Under the pieces are notes generated by a model, which saw only the letters and a program-made list of their open reading frames with translations, searched no databases and had not been told where the DNA came from. Shown here piece after piece: positions 17,229-50,665 of a stretch of DNA of 64,000 nucleotides; within the stretch, counting starts at the first letter, position 1, and every line of letters starts with the position of its first letter. The stretch is from assembly GCA_963803995.1 (NCBI GenBank), contig CAWDOT010000012.1, forward strand, positions 140,822 to 204,821. The letters run 5' to 3'. Origin of the DNA: an uncultured Acidobacteriota bacterium (GTDB lineage Bacteria > Acidobacteriota > Thermoanaerobaculia > Multivoradales > JAGPDF01). Both the position numbers and the translations under genes were made by a program.

Positions 17229-17330
17229 GCGCGGGCGCACGCGAGGTGCGCCTCCCGCCGACTCCGCCCCGCGGTGCGCCGTGCGCGCCGCGGCCGAATC
17301 CAGTTGCGTTCGATCGAGGAGCTTCGTTCG

Positions 17331-19510
17331 ATGATCCGTTTCCTTCGCAGGGTTCTGCTCTGCGCTCTCTTTGCTGGTACCAGCCCGCTGTTCGCGGCCT
17401 GGGAGGCGAGGCTGGCCACCTCCGACGGCGCCCCGGCCGCGGGCTACTCGGTGGCCGTGGTCGGCCGCCCGCTCGCCGCCCTGTGCGACGCCGAAGGGCG
17501 CTTCCGCCTCGAACCGCCGCCGACGCCGCCGTTCGCGATCGTCGCCACCTCTCCGGAAGGGGTGATCGCGGCGCCGCTCGAGGTGATCGACCTCGGCGCG
17601 ACCGAGCTCCGGTTGCTCGAAGTGGTCCGCGAGGCGGTGACGGTCGTCTCGGGCGTCGCCCCCTCGCTCGAGCTGCTGCCGGGCAGCGCCGCCACCGTGC
17701 TCACCCGCGAGGAGCTCGAGCAGCGGGCGCCGCAACGGCTCTACCAGGCGCTCGAGTCGGTCGCGGGCGCGTCGAAGCTCGGCGACGGCGCCGACTCGGT
17801 GCCGGCGCTGCGCAACCTCGGCCGCGGCCGTACGCTGATCCTGATCGACGGCGCGCGGGTGACCGCCGAACGGCGCGCGGGGCCTTCGGCCACCTTCGTC
17901 GATCCGGCGAGCCTCGCCTCGGTCGAGGTCCTGCGCGGCCCGGGCTCGGTGGTCTATGGTTCGGACGCCTTCGGCGGCGTGCTGAACGCCGTCACCCGCG
18001 ATCCCGACGCCGAGCCCTTCGCCTTGCGGTACGGCGCGGAGGGAGCAGGCGGGGCGCTCGACGAGCGCTCGGCCTTCGCCGCGGCATCGTTCGGACTGGG
18101 ATCGGCCGGACTGCTGGTCGAGGGCCACTACCGCGAGGCCGACGACGCCGAAGCCGGCGGCGGAGAGGAGATCTACAACTCCTCCTACCAGGGGAGCGGC
18201 GGCGCGCTCCGCTTCGTCGCGCCGGTGGGGTCGGGCCGCCTCCGGCTCAATCTCGCGATCGAGCGAGTGGACGACCTCGGCAAGGCGTCGATCGATTCCC
18301 GGCAGATCCGCAGCTACTACCCGCTGGAAGACTCCGACCGACTGACTGCCTCCTGGATCGGCGATCCGGCGGGTGCCTGGAACTCGATCGAGACGGCGCT
18401 CTTCTACGGGCGCTATCACATCGTGCTCGACCGCGACCGGGCGCCCACCGACACCGCGAACCGCCGCGTCGACCGCTCCGACACCGACGCCGACGACGCG
18501 TCGCTGCGCTTCGTCGCGTCGCGCGCGGCGGGGGGTGGCAACCTGCAGCTCGGCGTCGACGTCGCGTCGCGTTTCGACCTCCGGGCGATCACCGAGCAGG
18601 TGCGCTACGCCGACGACCAGACGACGATCGTCCGCGTCGACCGCACCGTCTCGATCGAGGAGGCCGAGCAGGTCGACAGCGGGGCGTTCGCGACGTGGAA
18701 TCGGGCGCTCGCCGAGCGCTGGAGCCTGGGCGTCGGCGTGCGCGGGGATCTCGTCGACACGGAGAACCGCGGCGGGTACTACGGCGACCAGTCGATCGAG
18801 CATTCGGCGCTCTCCGGCAACCTGTCGCTCTCCGCCGGCCCCTTCGCGGGCTGGACGACCACGGCGCAGGTGGCGCGCGGCTTCCGCTCGCCGACGCTCT
18901 CCGACCGCTTCTTCCGCGGGCCGTCCGGACGCGGCTTCGTCACCGGCAACCCGGAGCTCGATCCCGAGACCAGCCTGCAGTACGACCTCGCCACGCGCTG
19001 GAGCCGGGGCGGACGGCGCTCGGGTTCTTCGTCTACCGTTACGAGATCGAGGATCTGATCGAGCGCTACGGCTCCGGCTCGGACTTCTTCTTCCGCAACC
19101 GGGGGCAGGCGACGATCGAGGGGATCGAAGCCGAGCTGCAGACCGGCTTCGGCCACGGCTGGAGCCTCGAAGCGGGCGCCGCGGTCTCGGACGGCGAGAC
19201 CGACGGCGGCGCGACGATCGACGACATCGCCGCCCCGAACGGCTGGGTGACCCTGCGCCACTCGTTCGGCAGGTTCTTCGCCTTCGGCCGGGTCTTCACC
19301 GCGCTCGAGCACGACGAGCCGGGGCCGACCAGCTCGCCCGCCGGGCTACACGCTCTTCGACCTGGGCGGCGGTTACCGCTTCTCGGAGGCTCTGGAGCTT
19401 CGCCTGCTCGTGCGCAACGTGGGCGATCACCGCTACTACGCCTCGCCCGACAACGCCGCCGACCGCGCCGTGGGCCGCAGCTTCGGCCTGTCGATCTCGG
19501 GCCGGATCTG
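17331..19510 (+). pseudogene. TonB-dependent receptor, two frameshifts
   Basis: ATG 17331 (MIRFLRRVLLCALFAG). Carboxypeptidase-regulatory-like N-domain, then plug (LYQALESVAGAS, RTLILIDGARV, VEVLRGPGSVVYGSDAFGGVLN), then barrel. Frame changes at about 19015 (LATRWSRG/ALGFFVYRYEIEDLIE) and 19335 (EHDEPGPT/PGYTLFDLGGGYRFSEALELRLLVRNVGDHRYY...GLSISGRI-stop 19508-19510). Confidence 0.85.
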
Positions 19511-19515
19511 ACGGC

Positions 19516-19935
19516 GGAGGGTCGAAGGGACGGAGAGAGAGAAGAAGGAAGACCAAAGAAGGAAAAGACCAAAGAAGGAAAAGACCAAAGAAGGAAAAGA
19601 CCAGAGAAGGAAAAGACCAGAGAAGGAAAAGACCAGAGAAGGAAAACGGTCTCCTTCGTGGTTGTCTCGTCGTGCGGCCGACGGCACCTCGGACCGTGGA
19701 AATGCGATGAGGGCGCGCCCGTTGCCGGAGCTGCGGCGCTCGAGGAGCAGGGGTTGCGGGCGATGCGGTGGCCCCGGAAGTCAGCGACCCGCGTCTGGGG
19801 CGGAGCCATCGACGCCCCGACCCGGCCGACGCCAGGCCCGCCTCCTCCCTTCTATGGGCTTTTTCTTCTTGGCTTCTGCTCTCTTCTGTTCTGCTTCTGC
19901 TTCTCTCTGCTCTTTGTCTCGTCGTTCTCTCGAAT
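19516..19935. repeat. Long-hairpin repeat element, copy A (purine-rich left arm, pyrimidine-rich right arm)
   Basis: Non-coding gap between convergent genes. The left arm is GA-only. The right end CCCTTCTATGGGCTTTTT (19847-19864) plus a CT-only tail matches the right ends of copies B, C and D. The interior CATCGACGCCCC...AGGCCCGCCTCC is similar to copy B2 (CATCGACCCGCC...AGGCCCGCCTCGG). Confidence 0.7.
19544..19649. repeat. Tandem repeat, 16-bp unit GAAGGAAAAGACCARA x ~6.5
   Basis: Units counted by hand at 19544, 19558, 19574, 19590, 19606 and 19622, with a partial unit at 19638. The unit resembles the family left end GAAAAGCTCCAGAGAAGG. Confidence 0.9.
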
Positions 19936-24130: not shown

Positions 24131-24545
24131 CGGGTTTCGGGGACAGGCACCGGTTCCACCCCCAGGATCGCTTCGCCCCGGCGTCCCGGGGCGCGGCGGC
24201 GAACTGCTCCAGAGAAGGAGAGGTGCAGGCCCGGGACCGCAGGTCGCCCGATCGACCGGCCGCCGCCAGGCCCGGCGCGGCTCCTTCTCTGGAGCTTTTG
24301 CTTTGGGATTCGGGGACAGGCACCTTTCGGGTGCGGCCCCGGACAGGCCCGGGATCAGGCGCCTCACCCGGACTGGACACTTCCCCCTCGGCGTCCTCGG
24401 CCGCGGCGGCGAAAAGCTCCAGAGAAGGAAAGGCGCAGGCCCGGGTGCATCGGTCGCTTCATCGACCCGCCACCGCGAGGCCCGCCTCGGACCCTTCTAT
24501 GGAGCTTTTGCTTCTCGTTCCTCTCTGTCCTCCCGCTGCTTGAGA
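24131..24545. repeat. Long-hairpin repeat element, two tandem copies (B1 24131-24305, B2 24311-24545)
   Basis: Each copy begins GGGGACAGGCACC. B1 has a perfect 15-bp inverted repeat, GCTCCAGAGAAGGAG (24206-24220) and CTCCTTCTCTGGAGC (24281-24295). B2 has GCTCCAGAGAAGG (24416-24428) and CCTTCTATGGAGC (24493-24505) with one mismatch. Both end in CTGGAGCTTTTGCTT, and B2 adds a CT-rich tail. Confidence 0.8.
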
Positions 24546-36261: not shown

Positions 36262-37591
36262 TCAGGTCAGGCTCTGCTGGCGGACGGTGAGCTCGAACTC
36301 GAGCAGGCCGGCCCGGAAGCGGTCGCCGGGGCGCAGCCGCGCCGAGCGCACGCGCTCCTCGCGCAGGTAGACGCCGTTGGTCGAACCGAGGTCGACGAGA
36401 TACGCGACGCCCTCGTCGAGAACGACGCGGAAGTGCTGCGACGACATGCGTCGGGTCCTGGAAGGCGAGCGTATTGCGCTGGGCGTCGCGGCCGATCGAC
36501 ACCGCCTGCTGCGGCGGCAGGCGGAAGCGGCGCGCCTCGTGGCCGTGCTCGCGCACCGTCAGCACGATCTCCTCGGTCAGCACCAGCGTGCGCTCGAACG
36601 GGTCGAGTCGCGGCAGGCTCTCGAACGCGGCGGTCTCGTCGAAGGAGATCTCGAACAGCTGGCCCGAACGCACCACGGGCTTCGCCAGGAGATCGCCCTC
36701 GAGCTCGGGGTCGAGCGGCGGCGCCTGCGACGCGGGAGTCGCGGCGAGTGCGCCGCCCGGCGCCGAGGGCATCGGAATTCCCGGTGCGGTGCCGACGTCC
36801 GGGAGAGCGTCCGTAGCTTCCTCGGTCCGCGGACGCCGGCGGGCGAGCCAGAATCCGAGCCACCCCGCGACGCCGGCCACGAGCAGGGCCAGGAGCCAGG
36901 GCCAGGTGCTCGACTCCGGCGCCGGCGGCGGTGCCGGGACCGGCGCCGGCGTTGCGGCCGGCGGCGGCGGCGCCTGCACGGCGGCGCGCGCCCGACGCTC
37001 GTCGGTGATCTCCTCGCGCAGCCGGCCGACCTCCGCGGCCACGCGCTCGGCGTCTACCGCCTGCAGCGGACCCGTGTAGGCGCCACCGGTGAGCAGCGCG
37101 AGCCGCCGCAGCGCCCGTTCGTCGGCGCGACCCGCGCCGACCGCGGCGATCCGCACGCCGGCATCGCGCGCCAGCCGGGCGACGTCCTCGAGCGTGGTCG
37201 CCGAGTTCTCGTCCTTGCCGTCCGAGATCACGACCAGCGCGCCGCCGCCGCCGAGCGTCCGCACGGCCTCGACCAGCGCGTCGTGGAGGACGGTGAAGCG
37301 GCCGCGGGGGGTGATCGAATCGAGGCTCTCGCCGGAGGCGCCGGGGCCGGTCGACAGCCAGCGCACCTCGTCGTCGAAGGTCAGGACCGCGAGCGGGGTC
37401 CCGGCCGGGAGGCGCGCAGTGAGGTCGCGCACGAGGGCAACCGCCGCCGCGCTCTCGGCGGGTGACAGCGAGCGGCTCGAATCGAGCGCGACCACCACGG
37501 CCGGGGCATCCTCCGCGGCGGGCGCGGGCAGGAGCGGCGAGGCGAGGAGCAGGCCGGAGAGGACGAAGAACGGCGCGCGGGTCGATGACAT
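36262..37591 (-). pseudogene. Membrane protein with extracytoplasmic vWA domain and cytoplasmic FHA domain, one frameshift
   Basis: ATG 37591 with a signal peptide. vWA MIDAS VVVALDSSRSLS, a Pro/Ala linker, TM WPWLLALLVAGVAGWLGFWLA, and FHA VSIGRDAQRNTLAF.../SSQHFRVVLDEGVAYLVDLGSTNGVYL. The shift at about 36448 falls inside the FHA domain. Confidence 0.75.
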
Positions 37592-37745
37592 CGGGCGGCC
37601 CTCCGGAGCCGAGTGTACCGGTCTCGCCTGGACCCCGCCCCGCCCCAAGCGGCGGGCCGGAGCCGCGATAGGATTGGCGCCGGCGCGCCCGGGTCCCGGT
37701 CCGCTGGAGGCCGCCGCCGCACCGCCCGATTCCCAAGGAGGCTCG

Positions 37746-39854
<2,109 letters not shown>

Positions 39855-39893
39855 CCCCGCCTTCGCCACCGCCCCCGCCCCGAAGGGGAACCT

Positions 39894-39932
39894 GGGGACA
39901 GGCACCCGCGGTGCCTGTCCCCGTTTCTTTTC
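39894..39932 (+). terminator. Rho-independent terminator after the S9 peptidase gene
   Basis: GGGGACAGGCACC-CGC-GGTGCCTGTCCCC, a perfect 13-bp stem, followed by GTTTCTTTTC. It begins 40 nt after the stop codon. Confidence 0.8.
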
Positions 39933-39952
39933 AGCAGAAGCCGGAGGCCAGG

Positions 39953-40260
39953 AGCTAGAAGCTAGAAGCTAAAAGCTAAAAGCTAAAAGCGAAAAGCAAA
40001 AGCTCCAGTTAAGGGGTTGTGGGCGGGGCGTCCGTGGCTCGATCTGGCAGCGGTGGCGCCGCTGAGGTCGCGAGGTGCGGCGGGAGGCTTCTCGAGGACG
40101 AGCGGTCTCGGGCGGCCACGGCCGCTCGATGGAGCCACCATCGCCACGCCCACAACCCCTTAACTGGAGCTTTTGCTGTTTTCCTTTTTCTTTGCTCTCT
40201 GCCTTGGGCGTCCTGGCTTCGAGGCAGGCCCTGGAGCTCTCTGTCTCGGCGGTTCTTCTC
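39953..40260. repeat. Long-hairpin repeat element, copy C, with perfect 30-bp terminal inverted repeats
   Basis: GCAAAAGCTCCAGTTAAGGGGTTGTGGGCG (39996-40025) and its exact reverse complement (40147-40176). It is preceded by seven tandem 7-mers GCTARAA (39954-40002) and followed by a CT-only tract. Confidence 0.9.
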
Positions 40261-40268
40261 TCTGGGCG

Positions 40269-41196
40269 CTAGTCCCGGTAGATCTCGTCGAGCGTCTCGC
40301 GCTGGCGGCGGAAGAGCAGGCCGACGAAGTGGGCGGAGAGGACGAGGGCGTAGGCGCCGAGGGCCCTGTTGATCAGGCCGCCGAGGAGCGGCAGGGGCGC
40401 GAGGATGGCGCCGAGCAGGATGCGGGTCGCGACCAGGAGGAGGACGATGCCGACCGTGGCCAGGCCCTGCGGGCCGGCCTTCGAGAGCAGCGCCTCGAGG
40501 TGCAGATCGACGCGGAAGCAGAGCCAGCCGCTGGCCTGTGCGCCGGTCGCGCCGAACGCGAAGACCCCGAGACAGAGCCCGATCCCGAGCGCGACGAGCA
40601 GGAGGAGGACGTCGCCGCGCGTCTGCGGTGCCCTCGATCAGCGCGAGCGGCGAGAAGTCGGTGACACGGGTCATCACCCAGGCGGGAAGCAGGGTGATGA
40701 CGGCGATGAAGAGGAACTGCACCATCTCCCCGAGGCGCTTGCCCGGCTCCGCGTAGTCGGGCCAGTCGGGCAGCTCGTCGTCGCCCTCGGCCGTGGTGCG
40801 GACGATCTCGAGCAGGAGCCCGGGCAGCAGGAGCGCGACGAGGGCCTGGACCAGGAGGCCCGCGAGGGCGTTGAGCAGCGTGGCGGCGGTGACCGTGAGC
40901 GCCCAGGCCGGCACGAGGTAGCGGCCGAGGCCGCGGAACGGGTAGAGCAGCGCGTCGGCGAAGCCGTAGGGGCGGTCGAGGCGGCGCTTCCGGACGTAGG
41001 CATTCGTCGCCGCGGGGGCTTCGGCGTCGAGCGGCAGCGCCCGCTCGCGGCAGTGGCGGCAGAGGAAGAGTCGATGGCCGGTTTCCACGCAGTCGGGGCA
41101 GAGCCGCCGCTTGCAGGAGGGACAACGGAACTCGGCAGGGCGGTCGGGGTGGGTCGTGCAGGGCGGCGGGACCAAGGACTGCAATCCTGACAGCAA
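40269..41196 (-). pseudogene. B-box-type zinc-finger membrane protein, one frameshift
   Basis: TTG start at 41196 (start uncertain). Cys/His cluster CTTHPDRPAEFRCPSCKRRLCPDCVETGHRLFLCRHC, followed by several TM helices. A shift at about 40625 precedes the last helices (...LLLLVALGIGLCLGVFAFG...LFRRQRETLDEIYRD-stop 40269-40271). Confidence 0.65.
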
Positions 41197-48381: not shown

Positions 48382-50665
48382 TCAGTCCTCGGGCGGTCGC
48401 GCCCACTCGGGCTCGATCTCGGGGAACGGCAGGTCGAGGTCCGCCCAGGCCGGGAGGCGGCGCGCGCGGGGTCCGAGGTCGATCACTTCGCGCAGTCGCG
48501 CGCAGTGCTCGCGGAAGCGCATCTCGGCGTAGTCGCGCCCGGTACCCATGGTGACCAGGAAGGGCCAGTCCGAAGCCGCGGCGAGCAGGAGCTGGTTGAG
48601 GATCGTCCGCCGCCACTTGCGCGACCCGCCCCAGCGCACGGCGGCGAAGGCGCGCCGCTCGAGGTCGGCGAGCTCCCACCAGAACCACTCGGTCTCGGGG
48701 TTGACCCAGACCCGATGATCGCCGCCGGCGCCCCACGAGCCCTCGGCGAAGAAGGCGCGGCGCAGCGCCGGCTGGGCGTCGAGCTCGTGGGACGGCGTGG
48801 TCGCCTCCACCGCGGCGCCGGGCGCCGCCAGCTCGAGCACCCGCTCGAGCCAGACCGGACCCTCGAACCACCAGTGCCCGAACAGCTCCATGTCGAAGGG
48901 CGCGCAGACCACGCCACCGCCCATGCCGTCGAGGCCGGCCGCCAGCGCGAGGAAGTGCTCCGCCTGCTCGTGGGCGCGCGCGCGCGCGTCCTCCGGCCAG
49001 TAGACCAGCTTGTCCGCCATGTCGACCTGGCTCTGGGTCACGCGCCAGAGGCGCAGCCCGGAAGGCCAGTGGCGCTTGTGGAAGTCGAGGAAGGCGCCGT
49101 CGCCCGGATAGCCGCCCTGGCTCGACCAGACCTGCGCGGCGCTGCGCGCGTCGCGCAGGAACGCCGCGACGGCGCTCTGGCGGATCCAGTAGGGGCGGGG
49201 GTGCGGTCCGCCCGGCTCGACCACCTGGTCGGGCGGCAGCTGGGAGCCGTAGGGGAAGGCGGGGTCGCCGGCGCGCACCAGGTGGGCGTCGACCACCGTC
49301 CAGTTGAGCCCCTGTTCGGCGAGGAAGAGCTCGTTGCCGGGGCGGCTCTCCTCGGAGGCGCCGGTGACCGGATGGCGCCAGGGCCCCCCCGGCCGGTAGG
49401 CGCACTCCGGCATCCAGCAGCCGCGCGGATCGATGCCGAACAGCTCGCGGTGGCTCTCGCGCCCGGCGCGCAGCGCCAGCCGGATCAGCTTCGAGGTGTG
49501 CGCGAGCGGCAGGTAGACGTGAGTGCCGGCCGAGGTGGAGAGCTCGATCGTGTCGTTCTCGGCGAGCGCCGCGAGCGCCGTCACGAGGTTCTTGTCGAAG
49601 GACTCCCAGAGCCCCTTCAGCCGCTGGTACTCGCCGTGCCACCAGAGGGCGAGCGGGTGGCGCTTGCGCGTCTCCCAGGCGGCCTTGGCGCGCTCGGCGA
49701 GATAGCGGTCGACGACGCCGACCGTGCGCGGGTCGGCGAGCATGGCGCCGACCACCGGGGTCACCGAGACCGTCGCGACGTGGCGTCGCCCCTTCCCGCC
49801 CAGCCGCCGGAAGACGTCGAGGAGCGGTAGGTAGCAGTGCGCGATCGCCTCCGCCAGCCAGTCCTCGCCGTGGGGCCAGGTGCCGTGGCCGAGCACCCAG
49901 GGCAGGTGCATGTGGAGGACGAAAGCGATCCGGCGCGGCGAACCGTCGACGCGGCCGGAGGCGGCGGCCGTGAAGGCGGGCGGCTCGAGCGGCGGCCGCT
50001 GCTTGAACTGGGAAGAGGATCCGCTCGCGCTCGGCCGCGCTGAGCCGGACGCCGGCGGCGGCCGCGGGCCCGACCGGCGCCTCCGGTTCGCTCCCGCCCT
50101 CGGCCCCGCCGCCGACCTCGACTCCGCCCCCGACCCCGACCGGGACGCCCACTTCGCCCGGCTCGGGCTGGAACTCGACCGGCGTCGTCAGCACCGAGCG
50201 CGGCGGCGGCTCCGGCCTGGCCGCCTCGCCAGCGAGCTTAGGCAACTCGGCGAAAGGAGGGAGGCCAGCCCGGGACGGAGGCTGGTCTTCGGAAGGCAAA
50301 AGCTCCATAGAAGGGGTCGTGGCGGGCGAGGCGCCCTTGCGAGTCCGGCGCTTCGTGGGGGCGGCAGCGCCCTCCGGTTTGGCCTTGGCAGCCGCCTTGC
50401 CCTTTGCGCCCGACCCGGCCTTCGAATCCGGTTCGCCACGCCTGCCGGCGGCGGCCGCTGCGCTCGCCTTTACGCCCTTTCCTTGGGCTCCCGCTGCCTT
50501 CTTCGGGCTGGTGGCGGTCCGGCGGCGGCGCGACTCCGCGTTCGGAAGCCCCGAACTCGCCTCGGCAGCTTCAGCGACCTCGACCGCAGGCTTTTTTTCC
50601 TTAACTGGGCTTTTGCTGTTCTTTACTTTGGGCGTGCTTCCCTTCGCCTTCGGCCGGTCGCTCAT
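48382..50665 (-). pseudogene. GH57 1,4-alpha-glucan branching enzyme with a ~230-aa Lys/Ala/Pro-rich N-terminal extension, one frameshift
   Basis: GH57 core IAFVLHMHLPWVLGHGTWPHGEDWL, GCWMPECAY and FDMELFGHWWFEG (ORF 48382..49911). No start codon lies in frame just upstream of the core. The only ATG (50665, ATGA overlap with the DHH stop) opens a different frame that meets the core frame at about 50005. The extension is therefore plausible but unproven. Confidence 0.7.
50296..50640. repeat. Long-hairpin repeat element, copy D, inside the putative N-extension coding region
   Basis: Left end GCAAAAGCTCCATAGAAGGGG (50296-50316). Right end CCTTAACTGGGCTTTTGC (50599-50616) plus TGTTCTTTACTTTGGGCGT, similar to the copy C right flank TGTTTTCC...CCTTGGGCGT. 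Confidence 0.65.

Follow-up and report, generated by a model that had tools for sequence, protein, structure and literature searches.

Element D, an extended palindrome at 39979-40193 of the 64-kb window (the whole stretch of DNA analyzed here, from a Thermoanaerobaculia bacterium with roughly 72% GC), belongs to a family of inverted repeats with four to five loci in the window. The element has been inherited vertically at one chromosomal site and bears no marks of recent transposition. Its arms are held as tightly as coding sequence, while its spacer and core drift. A role in transcription is what we infer from this arrangement: with roughly even confidence, D is regarded as one locus of a lineage-specific repeat resembling the repetitive extragenic palindromes (REP) and bacterial interspersed mosaic elements (BIME), which would act as a bidirectional terminator or as a 3'-end hairpin. 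The original prediction had described the region as the type copy of a family and had offered three explanations, namely a miniature inverted-repeat transposable element (MITE) or other non-autonomous transposon, a REP/BIME-like or terminator hairpin, and a small RNA (sRNA). The second agrees best with the extragenic location at gene 3' ends, the order of A-tract, hairpin and T-tract on both strands, and the presence at the same site across species.

Anatomy and Folding of Element D

The center of D is formed by a pair of perfect 30-nt arms. The left arm, GCAAAAGCTCCAGTTAAGGGGTTGTGGGCG, is located at 39996-40025 on the forward strand and contains the family motif GCAAAAGCTCCA-GTT-AAGGGG, while its exact reverse complement at 40147-40176 reads CCCCTT-AAC-TGGAGCTTTTGC; no such match was obtained in 100 shuffles. 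The further partial dyad that had been predicted is also present, reaching 79-nt arms (39979-40057 and 40115-40193) with 81% complementarity and 57 nt between them, within which 9 of the 10 positions of GTGGCTCGAT are paired with ATGGAGCCAC. The interval enclosed by the perfect arms (40026-40146, 119-121 nt) is a variable, GC-rich core (76% GC) that is partly self-complementary (z = -4.5). On the left, an A-rich 7-mer microsatellite, AGCTARA on the forward strand, enters the left arm and iterates the GCAAAAGCT of that arm; Tandem Repeats Finder reports it as 7.6 copies of AGCTAAA at 39953-40004, with 91% matches. On the right is the T/C-rich tail TGTTTTCCTTTTTCTTTGCTCTCTGCCTT (40177-40205, forward strand), which would serve as a U-tract for rightward transcripts. 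This tail had been described as pyrimidine-only and is more correctly pyrimidine-rich, at 90% over that interval and 71% up to 40262.

It can be observed that D is non-coding and is flanked by the stop codons of two convergent genes, one encoding an S9 peptidase (39852-39854, forward strand) and the other a B-box/DUF4013 membrane protein (40269-40271, reverse strand). The arms and flanks are, as anticipated, richer in AT than their surroundings, with a GC content down to 0.40-0.48 in 60-nt windows compared with approximately 0.72 window-wide, and are among the very few AT-rich stretches of the window. Relative to shuffled sequences, the 331-nt D region folds with z = -10.1 and -8.3 on the two strands, and the 203-nt core region with z = -11.2 and -14.6.

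A long hairpin of such high stability, followed by a U-rich 3' tail and preceded by A/R-rich 5' repeats that could be (ARN)n-like, would also be expected of an independently transcribed structured sRNA or cis-antisense RNA gene. This possibility is nevertheless very improbable. Neither the window nor seven related loci gave a covariance-model match in Rfam 15 at gathering score. Below that threshold, only generic hairpin noise from plant miRNA-precursor models appeared (34 bits, where the gathering score is 137), and nothing at all for copies A-C, the other copies described below. No sigma-70-like or other promoter-like site was found at the element, which also led to rejection of an outward promoter. 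Furthermore, the strands fold equally well, G-U pair counts favor neither of them, and the core is conserved neither in sequence nor in length.

Vertical Inheritance at the D Site

The intergenic regions orthologous to D were retrieved through homologs of the B-box protein. The assemblies compared are independent of one another and come from ENA, JGI, and Logan, three other sources. Since the same architecture recurs in all three, D does not result from faulty assembly. Four relatives have contigs that reach across the convergent B-box/S9 pair, and each of them carries the element. In these it begins 87-100 nt past the B-box stop codon, with the same arms, and faces the S9 gene. At the loci L206 and L207 (72% B-box identity), the core extends to 316 nt and contains three tandem repeats spaced 96-100 nt, and the accompanying array is (AAAAGC)n. 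At L208 (66%), a core of 200 nt is accompanied by (AGCTTTT)n and a 33-nt duplication, and at L213 and L214 (65%) both (CAGAAAC)n and (AGCTTTT)n occur, with a core of 152 nt in L213. In the window itself, the core is 119 nt and the array is the 7-mer described above. A fifth locus, L205 (84% identity), has this spacer too, on a contig that stops short of the arm.

Conservation is distributed unevenly along the site. Across four taxa, the arm on the S9 side retains 86-92% identity and the arm on the B-box side 69-85%, compared with 81-87% for the last 150 nt of the gene, 61-66% for the spacer, and 32-56% for the core. The core is recognizably homologous to that of D solely in L206, the closest full ortholog. 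The orthologs also retain details specific to this locus, namely the GTT triplet of the arm and the inner arm GGGGT(T/A)GTGGG. The inheritance of such details indicates vertical descent of the D locus and not repeated insertion.

The arms do not diverge independently in every case. Between the window and L206, a coordinated change affects both arms, with GTGGG/CCCAC in one and GTAAG/CTTAC in the other. Arms of unlike subtypes, GCCCAT-N-TAAGGG opposite GCTC-CAGTTAAGGGG, face each other in L208 and L213, so the perfect arms of the window and L206 look like the product of later homogenization from arm to arm, which in the window was probably recent.

The ortholog elements exhibit very fast length turnover, with tandem duplication enlarging their cores and flanks. 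Three units at a spacing of 96-100 nt occupy 1401-1680 of L206, two units of 33 nt occupy 5803-5868 of L208, and the (CAGAAAC)n array at 1270-1300 of L214 is missing from the near relative L213. The flanking arrays and core duplications probably arise from slippage at a hairpin-forming site.

This evidence bears directly on the proposal of a classical MITE, moved by cut-and-paste and ending in the 30-bp terminal inverted repeats. Terminal inverted repeats common to D, A, B, C, and the orthologs, a size of 100-400 bp, and AT-rich ends are all features of such elements. The proposal is nonetheless already largely refuted, and it is held to be very improbable. No target-site duplication was found upon reading the flanks of D, B, C, and A, which carry no direct repeats and are instead complementary, the left one being rich in A and the right one in T. 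Unlinked copies have unrelated interiors, whose lengths differ 5-fold. Every relative that spans the gene pair has the element, with the GTT triplet and GGGGT(T/A)GTGGG kept. No transposase was detected in the window, and a blastn search of a plasmid collection gave no match to the element. A clean empty site was not encountered either: in L212 (54% B-box identity), a patatin gene is located at the site, and no motif occurs in 20.9 kb. L212 thus marks the bound of the family and is not a clean empty site. At the M23-peptidase site of copies B and C, synteny is broken in L209 and L211, which are uninformative on empty sites.

The Arm Motif and Other Copies in the Window

The family rests on a short arm motif, AAAAGC(T)CCA-NNN-AAGG. 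Its core AAAAGCYCCANNNAAGG matches six times in the window at no more than one mismatch, compared with 0.00 expected, and five of the six matches are intergenic. The family is thus real, as had been claimed, with D as its type copy. Exact arm cores occur at a density of about 1 per 10 kb, and an nhmmer arm profile found no copies in the window beyond the known loci. An alignment of 22 arms gave the consensus RAAGCAAAAGC(T)CCA-NNN-AAGGGG, followed by G-rich sequence, in which the spacing from AAAAG to CCA varies by 1-3 nt and the GTT triplet of D is not conserved across copies (GAG, TAG, and TCT are found elsewhere). Unlinked copies align by blastn over 14-20 nt of arm alone, although copies A, B, and C have approximately 40 nt of the right arm in common. 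Core lengths across copies and orthologs vary from 64 to ~330 nt.

The original prediction listed related ends at 19.6, 24.2, 24.4 and 50.3-50.6 kb. Those at 24.2 and 24.4 kb are genuine. Copy B (24201-24301) has the arms GAACTGCTCCAGAGAAGG and CCTTCTCTGGAGCTTTTGC around a 64-nt core and folds with z = -3.2 and -4.2. Copy C (24411-24511) has the arms GAAAAGCTCCAGAGAAGG and CCTTCTATGGAGCTTTTGC, likewise with a 64-nt core, and is located after the end of the M23 peptidase gene, between it and an epimerase gene. The two copies are tandem duplicates, with 81.6% identity over 125 nt.

The site at 19.6 kb, copy A (19549-19913), is a variant subtype without an ordinary left arm. It lies between a TonB-receptor gene and an amino-acid-permease gene that converge on it. 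In place of the left arm there are six near-perfect tandem 16-mers AAGACCARAGAAGGAA at 19549-19646, each a variant of the arm shorter by one base. These are followed by a core, by the right arm CCTTCTATGGGCTTTTTC at 19848-19865, and by CT-rich repeats at 19872-19913. The fold of copy A is weak (z = -2.3 and -1.2). Its variant motif is also found in a relative, L121-L124 (80% DHH identity), where an element with the same GACCA-type motif lies between convergent genes. As an aside, the six 16-nt units AAGACCAAAGAAGGAA, which match at 98%, form a purine-only tract with six evenly spaced AAGGAA (GGA) words. In addition, a single degenerate arm, GAAAAAGCGCCATAGAAGA, is present at 516-534, 118 nt downstream of the SMC gene.

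The site at 50.3-50.6 kb does not stand as a hairpin copy, since it is coding and does not fold (z = -1.5, no better than shuffles). Two arm motifs, one strong (50296-50316) and one weak (50599-50618), lie on the reverse strand in the N-terminal extension of a GH57 gene. This extension (49912-50665, reverse strand; 4637-5380 in L119, 2774-3520 in L120, and 11131-11880 in L121) is an open frame of ~250 codons, fast-evolving and rich in K, A, and P, within which some islands are conserved, and in the relatives the GH57 start overlaps the upstream DHH stop as ATGA. The strong arm encodes TPS(M/L/K)ELL. It is retained in L119 and L120 (89% and 93% DHH identity) and absent from L121 (80%). The stretch could be what is left of an older element that the gene took in. 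In the DHH-GH57 spacer of L212 (3847-3946), a run of N is flanked on either side by the same ~57-nt sequence; this is an assembly gap within a tandem repeat, in a region homologous to the GH57 extension.

Sequence Conservation versus Pairing

The extent to which the long stem is maintained differs markedly among copies. Fold significance is strong in D (z = -11 to -15) and L206 (-6.6), moderate in B, C, L208, and L213 (-3 to -4), and weak in copy A and the L121 variant. The most constant family feature is the arm motif with its A/T-tract; the long stem is usual but loosely kept.

A conserved motif of this type could be a sequence-specific signal in double-stranded DNA, bound by a nucleoid protein or similar to an iteron or uptake sequence, in which case the hairpins would be incidental. 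Conservation of the motif rather than of pairing is what such a signal predicts, as are the single arms at 516-534 and in L108 (a locus described below), the arm conserved in the coding region of three relatives, and the direct array of six arm motifs in copy A. A parallel is provided by the uptake sequences of Haemophilus and Neisseria, which form inverted pairs at terminators, with an A-tract and a stem. However, uptake signals occur about once per kb and mostly within genes, compared with about one exact core per 10 kb here, five of six intergenic. The variation of 1-3 nt between AAAAG and CCA would be awkward for a rigid protein site, and no candidate binding protein accompanies the motif. 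Such a signal is therefore considered improbable, and a DNA uptake sequence proper (DUS/USS-like) was rejected, since the 64 kb contain six cores, of which five are intergenic and arranged as inverted pairs.

A more plausible alternative, although still well below the favored one, is that the elements are REPINs (REP doublets forming hairpins) of a selfish or domesticated kind. The arms would be atypical REP units, the doublets would be produced and maintained by a single-copy Y1 transposase (RAYT, TIRYT, or class-3 TnpA) encoded elsewhere in the genome, and any terminator activity would be a by-product. This is the main rival of the terminator interpretation. It accounts for an extragenic inverted doublet whose arm sequence is conserved well beyond the needs of pairing, and for tandem arm motifs such as the six 16-nt units in copy A, which are similar to REP clusters. 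REPINs persist vertically, which fits the history of the D locus. It also finds some support in a small palindrome, GCYCC-N6-GGRG(C), within some arms, for example GCTCC-AGAGAA-GGAGC in B and GCCCATATATGGGC in L214.

The folding energy of this small palindrome is -10.9 kcal/mol in the right arm of B and -8.0 kcal/mol in L214, but is weak, approximately -4 kcal/mol, in most other arms, and for that reason a mini-hairpin was discarded as the general arm unit. Moreover, no GTAG, CGTC, or CnGA tag occurs at the hairpin foot in the 22 aligned arms; GTAG appears in the inner arm solely of the right arms of L208 and L213, and GTTG elsewhere. Among the sizeable open reading frames of the window there is no Y1 or other transposase, nor an integrase or reverse transcriptase. 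Finally, the REPINs described have spacers much shorter than the 64-330 nt observed here.

Reports from the same phylum also lend weight to the REPIN alternative. Acidobacteria are reported to carry class-3 TnpA-Y1 genes and atypical REP-like structures, with ~600 copies in Solibacter usitatus (PMC6006769), as well as TIRYT genes flanked by terminal inverted repeats (TIRs) bearing GGGGWSAS (PMC3733652). The hairpin containing GGGGACAGGCACC next to D fits GGGGWSAS, which is a lead and not a test.

Several other explanations of the arms were considered and rejected. An integron attC site is at variance with the order GTTAAGG ... CCTTAAC, as opposed to RYYYAAC ... GTTRRRY, with the varying triplet (GAG, TAG, TCT), and with the lack of an integrase. 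A small open reading frame ending in ...KSSS-TAA is available in GTT-type arms only, and the peptide PS[LM]ELL read across B and C meets a stop codon in that frame in D. A CsrA-sponge-like GGA array does not suit D-type arms, which read AAGGGG and contain no GGA, and a G-quadruplex would have only three G-runs at its disposal.

Terminator-Like Layout and Its Limits

In the interpretation favored here, a unit is composed of two inverted arms of ~25-35 nt around a fast-evolving, GC-rich core of 64 to ~330 nt, with A-rich microsatellites beyond one arm and T-rich ones beyond its partner. Palindromy gives D a purine- and A-rich 5' half and a pyrimidine- and T-rich 3' half on either strand, so that both transcripts would read an A-tract, a hairpin, and a U-tract. 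Either transcript would thus present an A-tract, a large GC-rich hairpin closed by GCUCC/GGAGC, and then UUUUGCU(G/U)UUU. The element might thereby stop, attenuate, or insulate convergent and read-through transcription at gene ends and protect the 3' ends, a role comparable to that of the BIME/REP elements of enterobacteria.

The distribution of copies is consistent with this proposal. Extragenic inverted doublets that form hairpins are found in D, B, C, L206, L208, and L213, and in all six the A-tract, GC-rich stem-loop, and T-tract follow in order, exemplified in D by GCAAAAGCTCC...GGAGCTTTTGCTGTTTT. All copies are located after stop codons. D, copy A, the L121 variant, and the half-site of L108 lie between convergent genes, while B/C and the arm at 516-534 sit past a gene end. 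It should be noted that these genomes, with 70-73% GC, have few A/T tracts (6 or more of 9 bases), and that the intergenic ones belong mostly to the family in the window, L119, L120, L121, L208, and L108. In L212, no intergenic A/T tract occurs in 20.9 kb. U-tract terminators must presumably be uncommon here, with most transcription units ending in some other way.

Several observations weigh against a terminator. At 100-400 nt, the hairpin is far above the size of a canonical intrinsic terminator; instead of a stem of ~5-14 bp and a loop of 3-8 nt, the family hairpins are composite, and a consensus terminator scan reported only the hairpin of the S9 gene, a stem in the left end of copy A, and the mini-hairpin of B. 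In the forward direction D would be redundant, since the S9 gene has its own strong terminator just before it. Identity of ~25 nt between unlinked loci exceeds what a terminator needs and suggests common descent or recognition by a sequence-specific reader. The arm subtypes of L208 and L213 differ, with imperfect pairing in the motif region, and copy A and the L121 variant fold weakly. Inner arms are clearly complementary only in D (16 of 20 positions, ungapped) and L206 (15 of 20), and partly in B (11 of 20), compared with ~8 of 20 elsewhere and a background of 34%. One strong arm is located in coding DNA, where termination is impossible.

In a further interpretation, held only tentatively, the ~25-nt arm (A-tract plus CCA-N3-AAGG) would be a sequence-specific signal for a dedicated protein, within an undescribed, untagged REPIN-like system of Thermoanaerobaculia. 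Candidate readers would be a domesticated HUH/Y1 transposase or a lineage-specific factor for termination or processing. Under such a reader, the arms might be kept at orthologous gene ends, homogenized, extended by tandem growth, and on one occasion absorbed into a coding region.

Genomic Setting and Wider Searches

The neighborhood of D consists of ordinary chromosomal genes, several of which are in the same order in L212, and the named homologs of the neighboring proteins are from Thermoanaerobaculia (Acidobacteriota). Some conserved genes are split across frames, namely those for the S9 peptidase (37080-39854), the B-box protein (40269-41196), GH57 (48382-50665), and the TonB-dependent receptor (17229-19511), which suggests an indel-prone (long-read?) assembly or pseudogenization. 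The source is probably an indel-prone genome assembled from a metagenome.

The canonical terminator that the original prediction noted before D lies at 39893-39923, 70 nt away, and has a T-tract. Terminator scan and folding define it as the hairpin GGGGACAGGCACC-CGC-GGTGCCTGTCCCC plus GTTTCTTTTC (39893-39933, forward strand; -29.3 kcal/mol), the terminator of the S9 gene. The unit GGGGACAGGCACC-N3-GGTGCCTGTCCCC constitutes a second conserved hairpin family, at 39894-39922 of the window and 1364-1392 of L213, where the 13-bp stem is identical but the loop is TTC instead of CGC and there is no T-tract. Half copies are situated at 24139-24151 and 24312-24324, 66-98 nt upstream of B and C. A scan of viral contigs gave no match to this hairpin.

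Searches beyond the close relatives returned little. The pattern GCAAAAGCTCCANNNAAGG, used to scan a genome collection, is loose and drew many chance matches from AT-rich genomes. Among the matches listed, only L108, from a Thermoanaerobaculia metagenome-assembled genome (MAG), and perhaps L112 look related; matches in Ilyomonas and Acidobacteriaceae were set aside as multi-copy sequence and a coding gene. On reading the sequence, L108 was found to have a single arm beside the stop codon of a convergent rsmI-like gene. L112 (2250-2360; an Acidobacteriaceae MAG with 64% GC) contains a lone arm-like GGGCAAAAGCTCCAGAGAAGGATAGCGGGGCAGGCGG, apparently intergenic and beside a GC-rich hairpin (nhmmer E = 0.0014), which could be a distant family member or a chance match. 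A metagenome scan by the C-terminus of the S9 peptidase collected 80 loci (836 kb), all at or below 78% identity and without the motif, which shows that distant S9 carriers, the only ones covered, are without the family. In viral contigs, the arm pattern hit four sites in AT-rich phages, AAAAGCCCC-N6-GGRGCT followed by T-rich sequence. By their look these are ordinary small terminators, which shows that in form the arm is like a terminator. No account of the family was found in Rfam, the plasmid collection, the literature searched, or paper supplements.

Comparison with Known Systems

Intergenic palindromic repeats are known mainly from Proteobacteria, and a family in uncultured, GC-rich Acidobacteria widens this picture. 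The D locus is a clear example of arms preserved at one site in several species, through selection or conversion, around a core that is replaced. The family supplies most of the terminator-like signals of the window and could help to place the ends of transcription units when Thermoanaerobaculia MAGs are annotated. It may further illustrate how palindromic terminators, REP-like repeats, and microsatellite expansion are connected.

The family resembles known intergenic palindromic repeats, yet it lacks the tag of REP sequences, has a compact unit that is weak in most arms, and lacks the target duplication and uniform interior of MITEs. With the REP/BIME/REPIN elements of Enterobacteria and Pseudomonas, it shares an extragenic position, mostly downstream of genes, hairpin-forming inverted doublets, conserved arms with a variable spacer, clusters or tandem units, long vertical persistence, and a proposed role in termination and 3'-end mRNA protection. 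It differs in having no palindromic unit of 20-40 nt tagged by GTAG/CGTC and no RAYT gene in the window. Its arm is instead an A-tract plus CCA-N3-AAGG with a mini-stem of at most 4-5 bp, and its spacer is GC-rich and 64-330 nt long. The class-3 TnpA-Y1 structures and TIRYT TIRs of Acidobacteria (PMC6006769, PMC3733652), compared here by their published description only, come from the same phylum and are likewise untagged or atypical dispersed repeats. The hairpin containing GGGGACAGGCACC fits the GGGGWSAS of the latter, but CnGA feet and GGGGWSAS are absent from the main arms. Correia elements, the MITEs of Neisseria, are similarly intergenic, 100-150 bp in size with terminal inverted repeats of ~26 bp, and form long RNA hairpins capable of termination or processing, whereas their TA target duplication, conserved interior, and strain-specific presence or absence are not seen in the family. 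Bidirectional intrinsic terminators, including the uptake pairs of Haemophilus and Neisseria, have the same succession of A-tract, GC stem, loop, stem, and T-tract on both strands, are enriched between convergent genes, and carry a conserved word at the stem base. Compared with these, the hairpin of the family is composite and 10-30 times longer, and the density of its motif is far under that of uptake signals.

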